64,000 bases of DNA, taken from the NCBI RefSeq assembly GCF_009931435.1, contig NZ_CP043414.1, one strand, 5' to 3'. Below the pieces are notes generated by a model that made no database searches, was not told the origin of the DNA, and was given only the letters and a program-made list of their open reading frames with translations. This DNA is from Escherichia coli. Lineage in GTDB: Bacteria > Pseudomonadota > Gammaproteobacteria > Enterobacterales > Enterobacteriaceae. Made by a program: the position numbers and the translations under genes. Within the stretch, counting starts at the first letter, position 1, and every line of letters begins with the position of its first letter. Of this stretch, positions 42,736-48,064 are shown one piece after another.

Positions 42736-43326
42736 TTATAGTGCATCTACCATATCCCGTACCTGAGATAATAACGACTGATAATAGCTCGCGTGAAGTT
42801 CTTCTCCATCGAATACCACTGTATTACACAAGAAAGTGACATCGGCATCTTCAATACCAAGATAACTGCACATATTTATCAAATAATCGCTTATATTTTT
42901 TTCCCAGCCCATCTGGACAAATGATTCTTTGTCTCCTCCAACCAGCGCCACCCAACGAACTTTATTGAATGGTAATTTGTGCCCATCTCCATAAGCCAGC
43001 CCATTATTCCATACTCTGTCAATATATCCTTTTATCATTGCTGGGAAGTTGTACCACCAGAGAGGAAAAACCACCACTAACGTGTCATGTTCAAGCAGCT
43101 CTGAATAAAGCTGATGAACATCTGGAGAATAACGTTTATCCATATTCTTCCAGTCTGGTTCATCTTCCGGCGTCATCACCGGGTTGAAATTACGCCGATA
43201 TAAATCGAGTTCCGTCACCTGTATTTTCCGCTCCATTGCCCGCTGATGGATCGCATCAGCAATATGTGCGGTCAATGAATCATGACGAGGATGGGCCCAT
43301 ACCAAATAAATACGTTCAGACTGCAT
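42736..43326 (-). CDS. ycaK: Flavodoxin-like-fold NAD(P)H dehydrogenase (quinone)-family protein YcaK
   Basis: 196-aa ORF MQSERIYLVWAHPRHDSLTAHIADAI...; matches YcaK. Confidence 0.88.
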   Translation of the reverse strand: MQSERIYLVWAHPRHDSLTAHIADAIHQRAMERKIQVTELDLYRRNFNPVMTPEDEPDWKNMDKRYSPDVHQLYSELLEHDTLVVVFPLWWYNFPAMIKGYIDRVWNNGLAYGDGHKLPFNKVRWVALVGGDKESFVQMGWEKNISDYLINMCSYLGIEDADVTFLCNTVVFDGEELHASYYQSLLSQVRDMVDAL

Positions 43327-43425
43327 AATTTTACCTCCACGTTAAGTTCTGGAGCGCACTTTACGCAGGCGGCATCATCCTGTAAACGTGATGATTCAGG
43401 ATGAGTTAATGAAGGATTTTCACTA

Positions 43426-44334
43426 ATGCGGATGAATATGTCTGACTTTGCCACTTTCTTTGCCGTGGCCCGTAATCAAAGCTTTCGTGCAGCAGGCGAT
43501 GAGTTAGGCTTATCTTCGTCCGCCATTAGCCATAGTATTAAAACACTGGAACAACGTCTTAAAATTCGCTTATTCAATCGGACAACCCGAAGCGTATCGT
43601 TAACGGAAGCGGGTTCTAATCTCTATGAACGATTGCGCCCAGCTTTCGACGAAATTCAGATCATGTTAGATGAGATGAATGATTTTCGTCTGACACCGAC
43701 AGGTACGCTCAAAATCAATGCCGCCCGGGTAGCTGCACGTATATTTTTAATACCTTTACTGGTTGGTTTCACACGTGAATATCCTGATATTAAAGTCGAG
43801 CTCACAACTGACGACTCTCTTGTTGATATCGTCCAGCAGGGCTTTGACGCTGGCGTTCGACTTAGTGGCATCGTCGAAAAAGATATGATCAGCGTGGCGA
43901 TCGGCCCGCCAGTGAAATTATGTGTAGCAGCAACGCCAGAGTACTTTGCAAGATATGGCAACCCCCGCCATCCTCATGATCTGCTTAATCATCAATGTGT
44001 TGTTTTTCGTTATCCCAGCGGCAAACCTTTCCACTGGCAATTTGCAAAAGAGCTGGAAATTGCTGTCGCAGGAAATATCATTCTGGATGATGTTGATGCT
44101 GAACTGGATGCCGTTTTGATGGGTGCTGGTATCGGGTATCTGCTTTATGAACAGATCAAGGAGTACCTTGATACCGGTCGTTTAGAATGTGTACTGGAAG
44201 ACTGGATCACAGAGCGTCCAGGCTTCCAGATCTATTACCCAAACCGCCAGTATATGTCCTGCGGCTTGCGCGCATTTCTCGATTATGTAAAAACGGGTCA
44301 GATCTGCCAGAGTCAGCGTCACCGACCACAATAA
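43426..44334 (+). CDS. ycaN: LysR-family transcriptional regulator YcaN
   Basis: 302-aa ORF with N-terminal helix-turn-helix and LysR substrate-binding region; transcribed divergently from ycaK. Confidence 0.9.
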   Translation: MRMNMSDFATFFAVARNQSFRAAGDELGLSSSAISHSIKTLEQRLKIRLFNRTTRSVSLTEAGSNLYERLRPAFDEIQIMLDEMNDFRLTPTGTLKINAARVAARIFLIPLLVGFTREYPDIKVELTTDDSLVDIVQQGFDAGVRLSGIVEKDMISVAIGPPVKLCVAATPEYFARYGNPRHPHDLLNHQCVVFRYPSGKPFHWQFAKELEIAVAGNIILDDVDAELDAVLMGAGIGYLLYEQIKEYLDTGRLECVLEDWITERPGFQIYYPNRQYMSCGLRAFLDYVKTGQICQSQRHRPQ

Positions 44335-45974: not shown

Positions 45975-47123
45975 TTACACGTGAGCAACGGGTTTCGGCG
46001 TATGACCGGCGTTGCGAAGCAGCATCAGCAAATAGATAAACGATACGCTGGCGATCATGATAAACAATAAATTATCGGAGAAATTCTGCATTAGCATAGC
46101 GGTAAATGACGGGCCAAGCAGACTTCCTACGGTATAGCTCAACAGTAAGGCCTGGTTCATCGCCACCAGTTGATGATGTTCAACTTTCTCGCAAGCCCAT
46201 GCCATCGCCACCGGATATAGCGTAAAGCCAGCGGCACCGAGGATGAATAACGCTGGGGCCATCGCCGCCTGGCTAAGCATCGCGATACTGCCGAGAATGA
46301 CGACAAAGACCTGAACACGCAACACCAGCAGTCGACCAAACTTATCCGCCAGACGTCCAATCGGCCATTGTCCAAGGATACCCGCACTGACCAGTACCGC
46401 CATCCAGAAACCAATGCTGGCATTGCTCACCCCTTTGTGATTGAGGTACAGCGGCATCAGGCCATATAGAGATCCCAGAACGATTCCTGAGATAATGCAG
46501 CCATTCACGCCAAGCCGCGCCTGACGGAGTTTTAGCATGGACGTAATTAACGTCGAATCATGGTTTTCAGCCTGCTGATTCAGCACACGCGTAAACAACA
46601 GCGGTAAGATCCCTGCCAACGTCAAACCTGTAACCCACGGCAATACGGACATCAGCTCGGTTGAAACTTTGCTGACCAGTAACTGGCCTAAAAACGTTCC
46701 CACGTAATAAACCATCATATACGCAGCAAGCAAACGCCCACGGTTACGTGACGTCCCACTGCACATCAGCGCGCTCTCAACAACCACCCAAATCATGGCA
46801 CAGCCGACGCCGGCGACAAAACGCCAAGCCAACCAGCTCCAGAATCCAATCATCAGGCCAAGGCCGGCACAGCCAGCGGCAAAAATGAAGGAGGCCAGAT
46901 AATAGCTGCGGTTAAAGCCAATGCGCTTAATGACATACCCTGTCAGCAATGTACCGACCAGGTTGCCGGTAAAATAGGATGAGCTGACAACGCCTACCTG
47001 CCATGTGGACATATGTTCCTGGGCGAGCCAAAGCGGCACGAGTGTATTTAACACTGCGATCGCCAAAGTCAACAAAAGCAGGCCAGACAGCAAAAGCATG
47101 ACAGGCCGGGTATACGTGGACAT
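45975..47123 (-). CDS. ycaD: Major facilitator superfamily transporter YcaD
   Basis: 382-aa, 12-helix-type ORF matching YcaD. Confidence 0.9.
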
Positions 47124-47437
47124 GAATTAAAACCGTGAGGAAGTTCAAATTTCATGCGCATCATGCCACCGCCAAAAACATTGTCAATGGGTGAAAATAC
47201 GCGCATATCGCAGCTGAGGTATTATCGATTTATATTACTCATTCATAACGCTAATGCTGGAGAGACGATTAATCTCATCTGATTGTTTTTATTGATCTAA
47301 CACAAATTTCATACGCTTCGTTCAGTCGAAAAATTTCATGGTCACAGCAAACTCATATTTCCCGTCTATGCTTTCAGAGCAATGCATCGCGTCTGACCGA
47401 TTTCAGACGTACCGCTGACTCTCGAAAGGAGAAGAGG

Positions 47438-48064
47438 ATGACCAAACCGTATGTTCGTCTTGATAAAAATGATGCTGCCGTTTTGCTTGTTGATCACCAG
47501 GCTGGTTTACTTTCCCTTGTACGGGATATCGAACCCGATAAGTTTAAAAATAACGTGCTGGCGCTGGGCGACCTAGCTAAGTATTTCAACTTACCTACTA
47601 TTCTTACCACCAGTTTTGAAACCGGTCCTAACGGCCCATTAGTTCCAGAACTGAAAGCACAGTTTCCCGATGCACCTTACATTGCTCGCCCGGGAAATAT
47701 TAACGCCTGGGATAACGAAGATTTTGTAAAAGCTGTCAAAGCGACAGGTAAAAAACAGTTAATTATTGCCGGTGTGGTAACCGAAGTTTGCGTGGCATTC
47801 CCGGCGCTTTCAGCCATTGAAGAAGGGTTTGACGTCTTTGTCGTGACTGACGCGTCAGGGACCTTTAATGAAATTACCCGGCATTCGGCATGGGATCGCA
47901 TGTCGCAAGCTGGTGCGCAATTGATGACATGGTTCGGCGTGGCGTGCGAGCTGCATCGCGACTGGCGTAATGATATTGAAGGACTGGCGACGTTGTTCTC
48001 TAACCATATTCCTGATTATCGTAATTTGATGACCAGTTATGACACGTTAACGAAGCAGAAATAA
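47438..48064 (+). CDS. ycaC: Isochorismatase-family hydrolase YcaC
   Basis: 208-aa ORF MTKPYVRLDKNDAAVLLVDHQAGLL... with catalytic-cysteine region VVTEVCVAFP; matches YcaC. Confidence 0.92.
   Translation: MTKPYVRLDKNDAAVLLVDHQAGLLSLVRDIEPDKFKNNVLALGDLAKYFNLPTILTTSFETGPNGPLVPELKAQFPDAPYIARPGNINAWDNEDFVKAVKATGKKQLIIAGVVTEVCVAFPALSAIEEGFDVFVVTDASGTFNEITRHSAWDRMSQAGAQLMTWFGVACELHRDWRNDIEGLATLFSNHIPDYRNLMTSYDTLTKQK

Follow-up and report, generated by a model that had tools for sequence, protein, structure and literature searches.

Independent genes in a variable slot between pfl and dms of Escherichia coli: a probable patchwork around the divergent ycaN-ycaK regulator/enzyme pair

Background

In the LysR paradigm, the regulator gene lies divergent from its target gene, with a T-N11-A site for recognition around position -65 and one for activation around -35. 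FinR-fprA of Pseudomonas putida is a pairing of this kind between a LysR regulator and a flavoenzyme gene. The locus considered here has its closest described counterpart in Escherichia coli K-12 MG1655, where the genes b0897-b0901 (ycaC, ycaD, ycaM, ycaN and ycaK) have the same gene set, order, orientation and spacers. It occupies positions 42736-48064 of the window, i.e. of the whole 64-kb stretch of E. coli DNA that was analysed, and open reading frames together with family profile matches identify it as ycaK (minus strand), ycaN (plus), ycaM (minus), ycaD (minus) and ycaC (plus), with pflA upstream and dmsC downstream. The five genes are therefore b0901-b0897 of K-12, all of them already known. 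Nucleotide identity between the window and K-12 is ~98%, and the proteins differ by 4, 6, 1, 2 and 2 residues (ycaK, ycaN, ycaM, ycaD and ycaC, respectively). The lineage of the window is nevertheless rare, with at least 99% identity over 42000-49000 in only 2 of 5426 complete E. coli genomes.

A preliminary description of this DNA had given the identities, families and coordinates of the genes, their pfl and dms flanks and a divergent region of 99 bp between ycaK and ycaN (the gap is exactly 99 bp), all of which our analysis bears out. It had also called the genes devoid of firmly assigned roles, in agreement with the literature searched, which assigns a physiological role to none of the five. 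In our view the block is probably a patchwork made up of four or more transcription units, independent of one another, in a chromosomal slot of varying content flanked by the conserved operons dmsABC and pflBA; ycaN and ycaK would form a cassette in it, to which the other genes are unrelated, as they are to each other.

Presence and absence of the five genes

The flanking region is present in 5425 of the 5426 complete E. coli genomes, ycaM in 4358 (80%) and ycaK-ycaN in 3317 (61%). With the pair absent from 39% of the genomes and ycaM from about 20%, the block is not the conserved core DNA for which it had been taken. Three structural classes were read directly from the sequences: the full block (A), an O157:H7 type (B) and a CFT073/S6 type (C). 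Class B lacks 42747..44221, a segment with ycaK and codons 1-265 of ycaN, and O157:H7 retains just a 111-bp ycaN stump; this junction type occurs in 1022 genomes. Class C lacks 42694..45924 (ycaK, ycaN, ycaM and the ycaM promoter region), its homology to the window stopping at 42693, and in CFT073 and S6 pflA is fused to the ycaD terminator. The left edge of the variable segment is the terminator hairpin of pflA (42667..42699, plus strand; GCGGCAAC-N8-GTTGCCGC plus a T-run, read from the sequence), which all three classes have kept. On the right, the class C deletion is bounded by a predicted, strong intrinsic-terminator-like hairpin of ycaD (45923..45964, minus strand; a 12-bp stem plus TTTTTTGTTT), which separates ycaD from ycaM. 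The YcaC protein (WP_000165876.1) is identical in representatives of the three classes.

A similar picture emerges from 80 Enterobacteriaceae genomes at species level in which a YcaD orthologue occurs: ycaC is adjacent in 17 of them, ycaM is present in 24 and ycaN-ycaK in 1. The genes dmsC, ycaD and pflA occur together at 60 of the 80 loci; the interval between ycaD and pflA is empty in 13 of these and holds more than 600 bp of other DNA in 31, including a PTS/transketolase/RpiR cassette, an invasin-type autotransporter and a choloylglycine-hydrolase gene paired with a LysR gene. Across these 80 species the five genes are gained and lost independently. Neighbourhood conservation, which the preliminary description had proposed as a check, holds for ycaD, which alone among the five keeps a constant place between dms and pfl. 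Base composition at third codon positions (GC3) is 0.40 in ycaK, 0.43 in ycaN, 0.445 in ycaC and 0.61 in ycaD, the last resembling the flanking core genes (0.56-0.62 in the pfl and dms genes).

Deletions on this scale could also mean that ycaK-ycaN, and in some lineages ycaM, are dispensable remnants on their way out of Escherichia, and that the cassette is of no great importance to E. coli today. The 3' end of ycaN survives as a stump, with two or three junction types at least, in the four examined species-level Escherichia genomes that lack the pair (E. albertii among them) and in about 19% of E. coli, and a further roughly 19% of E. coli are entirely without ycaK-ycaN-ycaM. In the same direction point a weak YcaN ChIP signal in standard medium and the dN/dS values against K-12, which, on small counts, are higher in ycaK (0.25) and ycaN (0.19) than in ycaM (0.01), ycaD (0.06) and ycaC (0.10). 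We still consider such decay unlikely, as all of these ratios are well below 1, both frames of the pair are intact in 61% of the complete genomes, the cassette is maintained in distant Proteobacteria, and a phenotype of ycaM deletion, colistin tolerance, has been reported. The dS of ycaM against K-12 (0.14) is far above that of its neighbours (0.03-0.05), which suggests allelic mosaicism.

The ycaN-ycaK pair and its control region

Within the patchwork that we favour, ycaN and ycaK are a genuine regulator/enzyme pair and the only members of the five that travel together. The ycaK gene (42736-43326, minus strand) encodes a Flavodoxin_2 / NQO1-like NAD(P)H oxidoreductase of 196 aa (PF02525, E=3e-38), which passes the NAD(P)H oxidoreductase equivalog NF007280 with 347 bits against a cutoff of 162. 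The 302-aa product of ycaN (43426-44334, plus strand) is a LysR-type transcriptional regulator with HTH_1 and LysR_substrate domains that reaches no NCBIfam equivalog cutoff, the top match being YafC with 158 of 470 bits. Orthologous divergent pairs with spacers of 95-146 bp were found in five other genomes, four of them from named genera (Pseudocitrobacter, Hafnia, 'Enterobacteriaceae bacterium 89', Pseudomonas and Burkholderia gladioli). Their YcaK homologues are 44-66% identical to YcaK and the divergent LysR neighbours 46-79% identical to YcaN, as against only 26-28% for other LysR genes at the same loci. Neither ycaM nor ycaC adjoins the pair at these five loci, where the surrounding genes are unrelated; a LysR neighbour is missing at 2 of the 8 YcaK-homologue loci sampled (window counted), namely in Edwardsiella (42% identity) and Streptomyces (44%). 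Most likely, the pair represents a cassette complete in itself, an NAD(P)H:quinone reductase under LysR control.

The divergent control region of 99 bp (43327..43425) was aligned with those of three other pair-carrying genomes. A consensus scan predicts a ycaK promoter at 43358..43386 (minus strand; -35 TTTACA at 43386-43381, a 17-nt spacer and -10 TAAAGT at 43363-43358) with 9 of 12 consensus matches and both hexamers in conserved columns of the four-genome alignment. Promoter-like hits here show no enrichment relative to shuffled sequence (13 vs 9.7 expected). Adjoining the ycaN ATG, with its centre some 65 bp upstream of the start thus predicted for ycaK, lies a T-N11-A box, TTAATGAA-GGATT-TTCACTAA (43406..43426; TGAA-N5-TTCA core). 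It is the sole exact match in the 64-kb window, with 0.46 expected by chance, and its core pattern is likewise unique; the box matches itself on the opposite strand with 2 mismatches and is conserved in all four aligned genomes. Since it overlaps the Shine-Dalgarno sequence and the start codon of ycaN, this conservation could partly reflect translation signals. A perfect inverted repeat with 8-nt arms, TCATCCTG / CAGGATGA, spaced 14 nt apart (43375..43404), overlaps the predicted ycaK -35 and also falls into conserved columns. On inspection of the alignment, its core ATCCTG/CAGGAT is retained in Pseudocitrobacter, and L059 has another dyad, ATAATC-N10-GATTAT, at the same position.

From their sequence and placement, we infer that the T-N11-A box is a candidate site for recognition by YcaN and for autoregulation, and the dyad a candidate promoter-proximal (activation) site. 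YcaN bound to the box would cover its own ribosome-binding site and start codon and could thereby repress itself, and by also occupying the dyad it could activate ycaK in response to a small-molecule inducer. Going by family membership only, this inducer would probably be a quinone or a related electrophile, which YcaK, as a flavin-dependent NAD(P)H:quinone-type reductase, would detoxify by reduction. The available portions of the literature on oxidoreductase screening libraries that include YcaK report no activity for the E. coli protein.

The remaining transcription units

Strand layout and predicted terminators indicate that the block comprises at least four transcription units, of which ycaN-ycaK would be the first. 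The ycaM gene (44335-45765, minus strand; the mechanical ORF extends to 45957, while the RefSeq annotation begins at MAGNVQ) encodes an APC-superfamily permease of 476 aa (PF13520, AA_permease_2) and is convergent with ycaN, the two stop codons abutting (0-bp gap); the two genes are listed as a convergent excludon (PMC12288877). Its top NCBIfam matches are the Glu/GABA-antiporter-like proteins YjeM (161 bits) and GadC (102 bits), and, these scores being far under the equivalog cutoffs (400 and 640 bits), YcaM is a distinct paralogue. The closest relatives after Enterobacteriaceae come from Paenibacillus and Clostridium (65-71% identity). With a predicted promoter-like site upstream (45856..45885, minus strand; TTCAAA-18-TATAAT, 10 of 12 consensus matches), ycaM would form a second unit, an orphan permease belonging to the Glu/GABA-antiporter-like branch and transcribed from a promoter of its own.

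The third unit would be ycaD (45975-47123, minus strand), an MFS transporter of 382 aa (PF07690, MFS_1) that passes NF002962 with 728 bits against a 361-bit cutoff and is probably the ancestral syntenic resident of the slot. A divergent region of 314 bp (47124..47437) with a promoter-like site for ycaD at 47187-47160 separates it from ycaC (47438-48064, plus strand). The latter encodes an isochorismatase-family cysteine hydrolase of 208 aa, which passes the YcaC equivalog NF041461 (408 bits vs a 310-bit cutoff), matches the 1YAC chain (E=2e-139) and possesses Asp19, Ala83 and Cys118. A bidirectional terminator-like hairpin, predicted on both strands, lies between ycaC and dmsC (48070..48091). 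According to RegulonDB, as cited in PMC4222967, ycaC is a transcription unit of its own; its reported regulation involves induction by a YdeO>GadE cascade and a BaeR site, and it clusters with general-stress genes. As a fourth unit, ycaC would be a monocistronic, stress-induced cysteine hydrolase.

Alternative explanations

The general-stress and acid-stress expression groups to which ycaC belongs also bear on a possible functional convergence, in which ycaN-ycaK and ycaC would be separate anti-quinone/electrophile cassettes without co-regulation, and ycaD and ycaM unrelated bystanders; a common theme of stress, not chance, would then have brought the two cassettes close together. Such convergence would suit the place of YcaK in the NQO1-like quinone reductase family, the clustering of YcaC elsewhere with redox genes under a LysR regulator, and the propionamide adduct, derived from acrylamide, that covalently modified the active-site Cys of Pseudomonas aeruginosa YcaC. 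It appears doubtful to us, however, since ycaC and ycaK-ycaN show no co-occurrence across genomes beyond Escherichia, the LysR regulators of the two cassettes are unrelated (those beside YcaC, of NF011573 type, share 52-57% identity among themselves and 25-27% with YcaN), and the literature searched gives no substrate for either enzyme.

Least probable of all is the single YcaN-controlled uptake-and-detoxification or catabolic module, five genes, from regulator and redox enzyme to two transporters and an amidohydrolase-like enzyme, serving one substrate, that the preliminary description had proposed: the genes are adjacent in K-12-type genomes and, by RNA-seq, knockout of ycaN reduced expression of ycaC and increased that of ycaD and focA (PMC9068703), but the strands alternate, a strong terminator-like hairpin parts ycaD from ycaM, about 39% of E. 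coli and nearly all other Enterobacteriaceae sampled carry ycaC and ycaD but no ycaN, ChIP-exo gave no YcaN site in the locus, ycaN-ycaK orthologues occur elsewhere without the other three genes alongside, a scan of the 64-kb window detected no YcaN-type box upstream of ycaC, ycaD (47124..47437) or ycaM, the putative box being confined to the ycaK/ycaN spacer, and ycaC has its own regulators. Because 702 genes were differentially expressed in the knockout, its effects point to indirect action, although some regulatory link between YcaN and its neighbours may exist. The phylogenetic independence of the genes already speaks largely against such a module.

Comparison with described systems

YcaC of Marinobacter, Brucella/Ochrobactrum and Pseudomonas citronellolis is 88-89% identical to the E. 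coli protein and has the same Asp/Cys active-site residues (structures 1YAC, 4WGF). In these genomes ycaC either diverges from an NF011573-type LysR regulator gene or lies downstream of one; genes for pirin, a second isochorismatase, an ABM-domain protein and FMN reductase are located nearby and would be its partners in these other Proteobacteria. By contrast, E. coli ycaC stands alone between dmsC and ycaD, with no NF011573-type regulator adjacent.

With NQO1, NQO2 and bacterial Flavodoxin_2 quinone oxidoreductases (PDB 4r81, 3lcm, 1d4a), YcaK shares PF02525 over residues 5-181, but it resembles quinone reductases of solved structure only distantly (E 1e-14 to 1e-9, down to 2.5e-14) and only in the N-terminal part (residues 2-120); it also scores well under the KefF and KefG cutoffs. 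The cassette is unlike classical LysR systems in that published ChIP-exo of YcaN (glucose minimal medium) yielded six weak sites (signal/noise 1.06-4.45), none of them in the locus or at the ycaK/ycaN spacer. It resembles them in the HTH_1 and LysR_substrate architecture of YcaN, in its divergence from ycaK, in a dyad T-N11-A box that lies some 65 bp from the start predicted for ycaK, and in a second dyad over the predicted -35.

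Results

Gene content of the yca block

The five genes previously described between the pfl and dms operons were confirmed at their coordinates by agreement of the ORF list, the RefSeq annotation of the closest genome and the K-12 annotation, and pflA and dmsC indeed flank the block on either side. The first gene, ycaK (42736-43326, - strand), encodes a Flavodoxin_2 protein (PF02525, 131.9 bits, cutoff 27) that passes the NAD(P)H oxidoreductase equivalog NF007280 (347.3 bits, cutoff 162), and is followed by ycaN (43426-44334, + strand), a LysR-type regulator with HTH_1 (PF00126, E=9e-21, residues 7-63) and LysR_substrate domains (PF03466, E=3e-32, residues 91-290). 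The product of ycaM (44335-45765, - strand), a member of the Glu/GABA antiporter-like branch of the APC superfamily, matches AA_permease_2 over the whole protein (PF13520, E=3.5e-29, residues 11-441), and that of ycaD (45975-47123, - strand) is an MFS_1 transporter (PF07690, E=1.5e-39) passing NF002962 (727.9 bits, cutoff 361). Finally, ycaC (47438-48064, + strand) encodes an isochorismatase-family cysteine hydrolase that passes the YcaC equivalog NF041461 (407.9 bits, cutoff 310) and matches PDB 1YAC with E=2e-139. Every family assignment of the preliminary description was borne out by Pfam and NCBIfam, and the divergent spacer between ycaK and ycaN measures 99 bp, as it had proposed. The stop codons of ycaN and ycaM are 0 bp apart, and the proteins differ from those of K-12 by 4, 6, 1, 2 and 2 residues (YcaK, YcaN, YcaM, YcaD and YcaC, respectively). 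The genes of the block are already known, and the additions of our analysis are descriptive.

Mechanically called ORFs overrun the annotated starts of ycaM (540 vs. 476 aa), pflA (255 vs. 246 aa) and dmsC (308 vs. 287 aa), with upstream extensions at 45766-45957, 41887-41913 and 48963-49025, respectively. The N-terminal extension of ycaM is unlikely to be real, because it crosses the gene's own promoter-like region and the ycaD terminator. A structured RNA in 42500-48200 was likewise rejected, the sole match of an Rfam scan of this interval at a permissive threshold being a chance snoRNA-like one (E=0.76).

YcaK weakly resembles the solved NQO1, NQO2 and bacterial quinone reductases (E=1e-14 to 1e-9), and in the literature it figures as a member of oxidoreductase screening libraries. 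It was dismissed as a KefF/KefG ancillary quinone oxidoreductase, its scores of 56.5 bits (KefF) and 47.4 bits (KefG) falling below the equivalog cutoffs of 210 and 240, and no KefB/KefC-type gene lies next to ycaK at the locus. Similarly, YcaM is not an equivalog of YjeM, its nearest match, or of GadC, with 160.8 and 101.9 bits far below the respective cutoffs of 400 and 640. The closest relatives of YcaM beyond Enterobacteriaceae are permeases of Paenibacillus, Brevibacillus and Clostridium (63-71% identity), which suggests transfer between phyla. The Paenibacillus and Clostridium homologues (65-71% identity) are standalone genes, and Rfam at gathering thresholds detected no riboswitch or T-box upstream of the Firmicute homologues.

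The interval between ycaD and pflA across Enterobacteriaceae

A scan of a genome collection with YcaD yielded 80 species-level loci, which were surveyed by tblastn with ten proteins of the window. The arrangement dmsABC-ycaD-pflA-pflB forms the common backbone of these Enterobacteriaceae loci; 17 of them have ycaC next to it, 24 have ycaM, and only the locus of 'Enterobacteriaceae bacterium 89' has ycaN-ycaK. Among the five genes whose neighbourhood conservation the preliminary description had proposed to check, ycaD alone is constant. Where dmsC, ycaD and pflA were seen together (60 loci), the ycaD-pflA interval is empty in 13, with gaps down to 43-47 bp, and harbours more than 600 bp of other DNA in 31. 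Its alternative contents include a PTS EIIC-GAT/split transketolase/RpiR cassette, an invasin-type inverse autotransporter, a choloylglycine-hydrolase and LysR pair, and a secreted protein without Pfam match. Such variable contents across loci mark the interval as a replacement hotspot, and the GC3 contrast agrees: ycaK (0.40), ycaN (0.43) and ycaC (0.445) lie below ycaD (0.61) and the pfl and dms genes (0.56-0.62).

Several occupants of this slot recur in the retrieved comparison loci. A 5-kb cassette of PTS EIIA, split transketolase, EIIC-GAT, EIIB and an RpiR regulator is present in several genera (loci L011, L022, L050, L071 and L081), and in its place Citrobacter youngae (L020:10103-13330) has the invasin-type inverse autotransporter, of 1,075 aa. 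A conserved protein of ~264 aa with a signal-peptide-like N-terminus (MRLFISGILLL...) sits beside pflA in several genera (L025:9303-10097, L010:10826-11617, L021:10839-11633, L032:10172-10966 and L081:13895-14680); a Pfam search of the L025 copy gave no match. The ycaC/ycaD spacer serves as a chromosomal integration site.

Presence and loss within Escherichia

Megablast of window positions 42000-49000 against 5,426 complete E. coli genomes returned matches in 5,425; in only 3,325 of these does a single location account for at least 80% of the query. Separate queries located ycaK-ycaN in 3,317 genomes (61%) and ycaM in 4,358 (80%), figures with which the earlier view of the block as conserved core DNA does not hold. 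Three structures were distinguished. Class A, seen in the window and in K-12, is the full block. In class B (O157:H7 strain JEONG-1266), the pflA terminator is followed by a diverged version of the pflA-ycaK spacer that includes the final ycaK bases, by a ycaN remnant limited to its last 111 bp, which carries a pseudogene annotation, and by ycaM; this class B junction was found in 1,022 genomes. In class C (strain S6 and the B2 strain CFT073) the pflA terminator is joined to that of ycaD, the missing segment corresponding to window positions 42694-45924 (ycaK, ycaN and ycaM). An identical YcaC protein (WP_000165876.1) is annotated in representatives of all three classes.

Stumps of the ycaN 3' end were also present in all four species-level Escherichia genomes without the pair that were examined, including E. 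albertii, and comprise at least two or three junction types. These remnants argue that ycaN-ycaK was ancestral to Escherichia and was lost by deletion more than once. The O157:H7-type junction (locus L002:1656-1864) and that of E. albertii (locus L007:10780-11006) share the same architecture, in which a few 3' bases of ycaK are joined to the end of ycaN (~110 bp in O157, ~85-110 bp in E. albertii); this may reflect an old shared allele, introgression or reused breakpoints. A foreign origin of 45 bp at the O157 junction as filler was rejected, as alignment with other Escherichia identifies them as diverged pflA-ycaK spacer and the last bases of ycaK.

The window derives from a rare E. coli lineage: over 42000-49000 only two of the 5,426 complete genomes reach 99% identity (the best being strain 2020CK-00188, 99.6%), and K-12-type genomes are ~98.0% identical. 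Compared with K-12, ycaM (44335-45765) has a dS of 0.14, and ycaK, ycaN, ycaD and ycaC have values of 0.03-0.05, i.e. about three times lower; likewise, a level of at least 99% identity is reached by 269 genomes for ycaM and by 19 for ycaK-ycaN. Both observations suggest recombination mosaicism inside the block. Insertions of ISEc43 (MB06101) and IS1 (YZ22MPE6) in the block are found in public records. A handful of plasmid-labelled records carry ycaK, ycaN or ycaM. Plasmid carriage of ycaN-ycaK was nevertheless rejected: the hits labelled as E. coli plasmids seem to be chromosomal records with a wrong label, one of them 4.8 Mb long and evidently a chromosome, and other plasmid matches to the cassette are distant homologues only (46% identity or less).

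Distribution of ycaN-ycaK and of ycaC in other genomes

Sampling of the genomic context of YcaK homologues revealed a divergent LysR gene in five other genomes, with spacers of 95-146 bp. In these orthologous pairs, identities of the YcaK homologue to YcaK and of the LysR protein to YcaN are 66% and 79% in Pseudocitrobacter, 62% and 68% in Hafnia, 58% and 69% in 'Enterobacteriaceae bacterium 89', 46% and 56% in Pseudomonas, and 44% and 46% in Burkholderia gladioli, other LysR genes at these loci reaching 26-28% identity to YcaN. In Pseudocitrobacter and 'Enterobacteriaceae bacterium 89' the pair is located between ycaD and pflA, just as in E. coli; its neighbours in the Hafnia, Pseudomonas and Burkholderia genomes are unrelated. 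Neither ycaM nor ycaC adjoins the pair in any of the five. No LysR partner is present beside the YcaK homologues of Edwardsiella and Streptomyces. Judged from this recurrence, ycaN-ycaK is a genuine two-gene cassette, and it alone of the five genes bears the signature of a functional pair. In B. gladioli, the start of a 383-aa MFS gene (YcaD has 382 aa) lies ~4 kb from the pair, beyond two IS elements (locus L087:8617-8639), and the gene runs off the end of the locus.

YcaC is 88-90% identical in Marinobacter, Pigmentiphaga, Brucella, Herminiimonas, Pasteurellaceae and Pseudomonas, and its extreme conservation has been remarked before (PMC4519933). This identity extends across alpha-, beta- and gamma-proteobacteria despite a patchy distribution and the low GC3 of the gene in E. 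coli. In Marinobacter, Brucella and P. citronellolis, YcaC lies beside a different, NF011573-type LysR regulator; such regulators share 52-57% identity with one another and 25-27% with YcaN, and a pirin, a second isochorismatase, an ABM-domain protein and an FMN reductase are encoded nearby. YhaJ, the pirin-associated regulator of E. coli, was considered as the YcaC-linked LysR protein and rejected, with 23-25% identity and a match to NF011573 instead. Gamma-lactamase activity is absent from YcaC, whose Asp19-Ala83-Cys118 triad is unusual (PMC12553813); the YcaC of the window has all three residues, the catalytic Asp and Cys included, with Ala83 at the usual position of Lys.

The ycaK/ycaN control region

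The spacer was aligned among four genomes. A candidate box of the T-N11-A type with dyad symmetry and a TGAA-N5-TTCA core (TTAATGAA-GGATT-TTCACTAA, 43406-43426) is conserved in all four and unique in the 64-kb window, so that no second box of this predicted YcaN type lies upstream of ycaC, ycaD or ycaM. Its centre is ~65 bp from the predicted ycaK start. The box overlaps the ribosome-binding site and ATG of ycaN, and these translation signals could partially explain its conservation. Among the most conserved elements of the spacer are also the predicted hexamers of the ycaK promoter (-35 TTTACA, 43386-43381; -10 TAAAGT, 43363-43358) and a perfect 8-nt dyad (TCATCCTG/CAGGATGA) spanning the predicted -35; at the position of this E. 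coli dyad, the comparison locus L059 has a different one.

Discussion

The best-supported view of the yca block is that of a patchwork, in which ycaD is the original occupant of a variable slot, to which ycaC, ycaM and the ycaN-ycaK cassette were added separately, each being kept or lost independently of the others. The alternative of a single five-gene module controlled by YcaN, as suggested in the preliminary description, finds little support. In its favour, RNA-seq of a ycaN knockout (M9 with threonine, late exponential phase) recorded lower expression of ycaC and higher expression of ycaD and focA, among a total of 702 genes with altered expression (PMC9068703). The layout, however, indicates separately transcribed units, with strands alternating across the block (-, +, -, -, +), a terminator-like hairpin (45933-45964) between ycaD and ycaM, and separate promoter-like sites. 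Independent transcription with unrelated regulation, which the preliminary description had named as evidence against a module, is largely what is found for ycaC: it is listed as a transcription unit of its own, induced by the YdeO>GadE cascade (PMC4222967), a BaeR binding site has been reported for it (PMC2731931), and it falls into a group of general-stress genes (PMC9501238). For ycaD and ycaM such independence is indicated structurally by the hairpin and promoter-like sites. A weak site for FliA has been described within the 3' end of ycaD, upstream of ycaM (PMC4183435), and the ycaM-ycaN pair figures among published convergent excludons (PMC12288877).

Nor do the genes co-occur across genomes, given frequencies of 61%, 80% and ~100% in E. 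coli and adjacency counts in the species-level loci that range from 24 (ycaM) and 17 (ycaC) to one (ycaN-ycaK). By the indirect measure of the putative YcaN box, which is confined to 43406-43426, a shared regulator site is equally lacking. YcaN ChIP-exo in glucose M9 without inducer gave six weak sites (signal/noise 1.06-4.45; PMC8464067, Dataset S4), near cspE, ynjB, yobF, ung, rho and yihQ and none at the yca genes, although binding to the ycaK/ycaN spacer may have been missed under these conditions. The lists of at least six other regulators also contain the yihQ site, which suggests background. A ChIP-exo peak at ycaC, considered as a YcaN site, belongs to YcjW (PMC8464067 supplement).

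For the ycaN-ycaK cassette within the patchwork, family membership and promoter architecture point to a LysR-type mechanism as the most likely one. YcaN would activate ycaK on sensing a quinone or electrophile, and YcaK would act as a reductase of the NAD(P)H:quinone type. A more far-reaching proposal, to which we give a low probability, is that the pair is a portable and self-contained sensor-effector switch for one specific quinone or electrophile, ancestral and repeatedly deleted (one allele being seemingly common to O157-type strains and E. albertii), and that the 3.2-kb deletion removing ycaM in CFT073-type (B2) strains may alter polymyxin tolerance. Such a shift is conceivable because deletion of ycaM in K-12 has been reported to raise the colistin IC50 six- to twenty-fold (2025 preprint, 10.1101/2025.07.07.662571). 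If this were true, the slot would be a lineage marker with physiological consequences and not an instance of neutral decay.

A specialist would find nothing surprising here. All five genes fall within the uncharacterised portion of the K-12 genome and are still legitimate functional targets, and our analysis narrows such work: ycaN-ycaK can be approached as one two-gene unit with quinones and electrophiles as candidates, ycaC is best viewed with its pirin and flavin-reductase partners of other Proteobacteria, and a common substrate for all five genes is not to be expected. Moreover, K-12 results on ycaN, ycaK or ycaM are not transferable to O157:H7-type or CFT073-type strains wherever the gene concerned is missing there. 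For the cassette itself, a parallel is the classical LysR arrangement, in which a recognition site lies near -65 and an activation site near -35; the predicted box near -65 and the dyad over the predicted ycaK -35 would match this arrangement.
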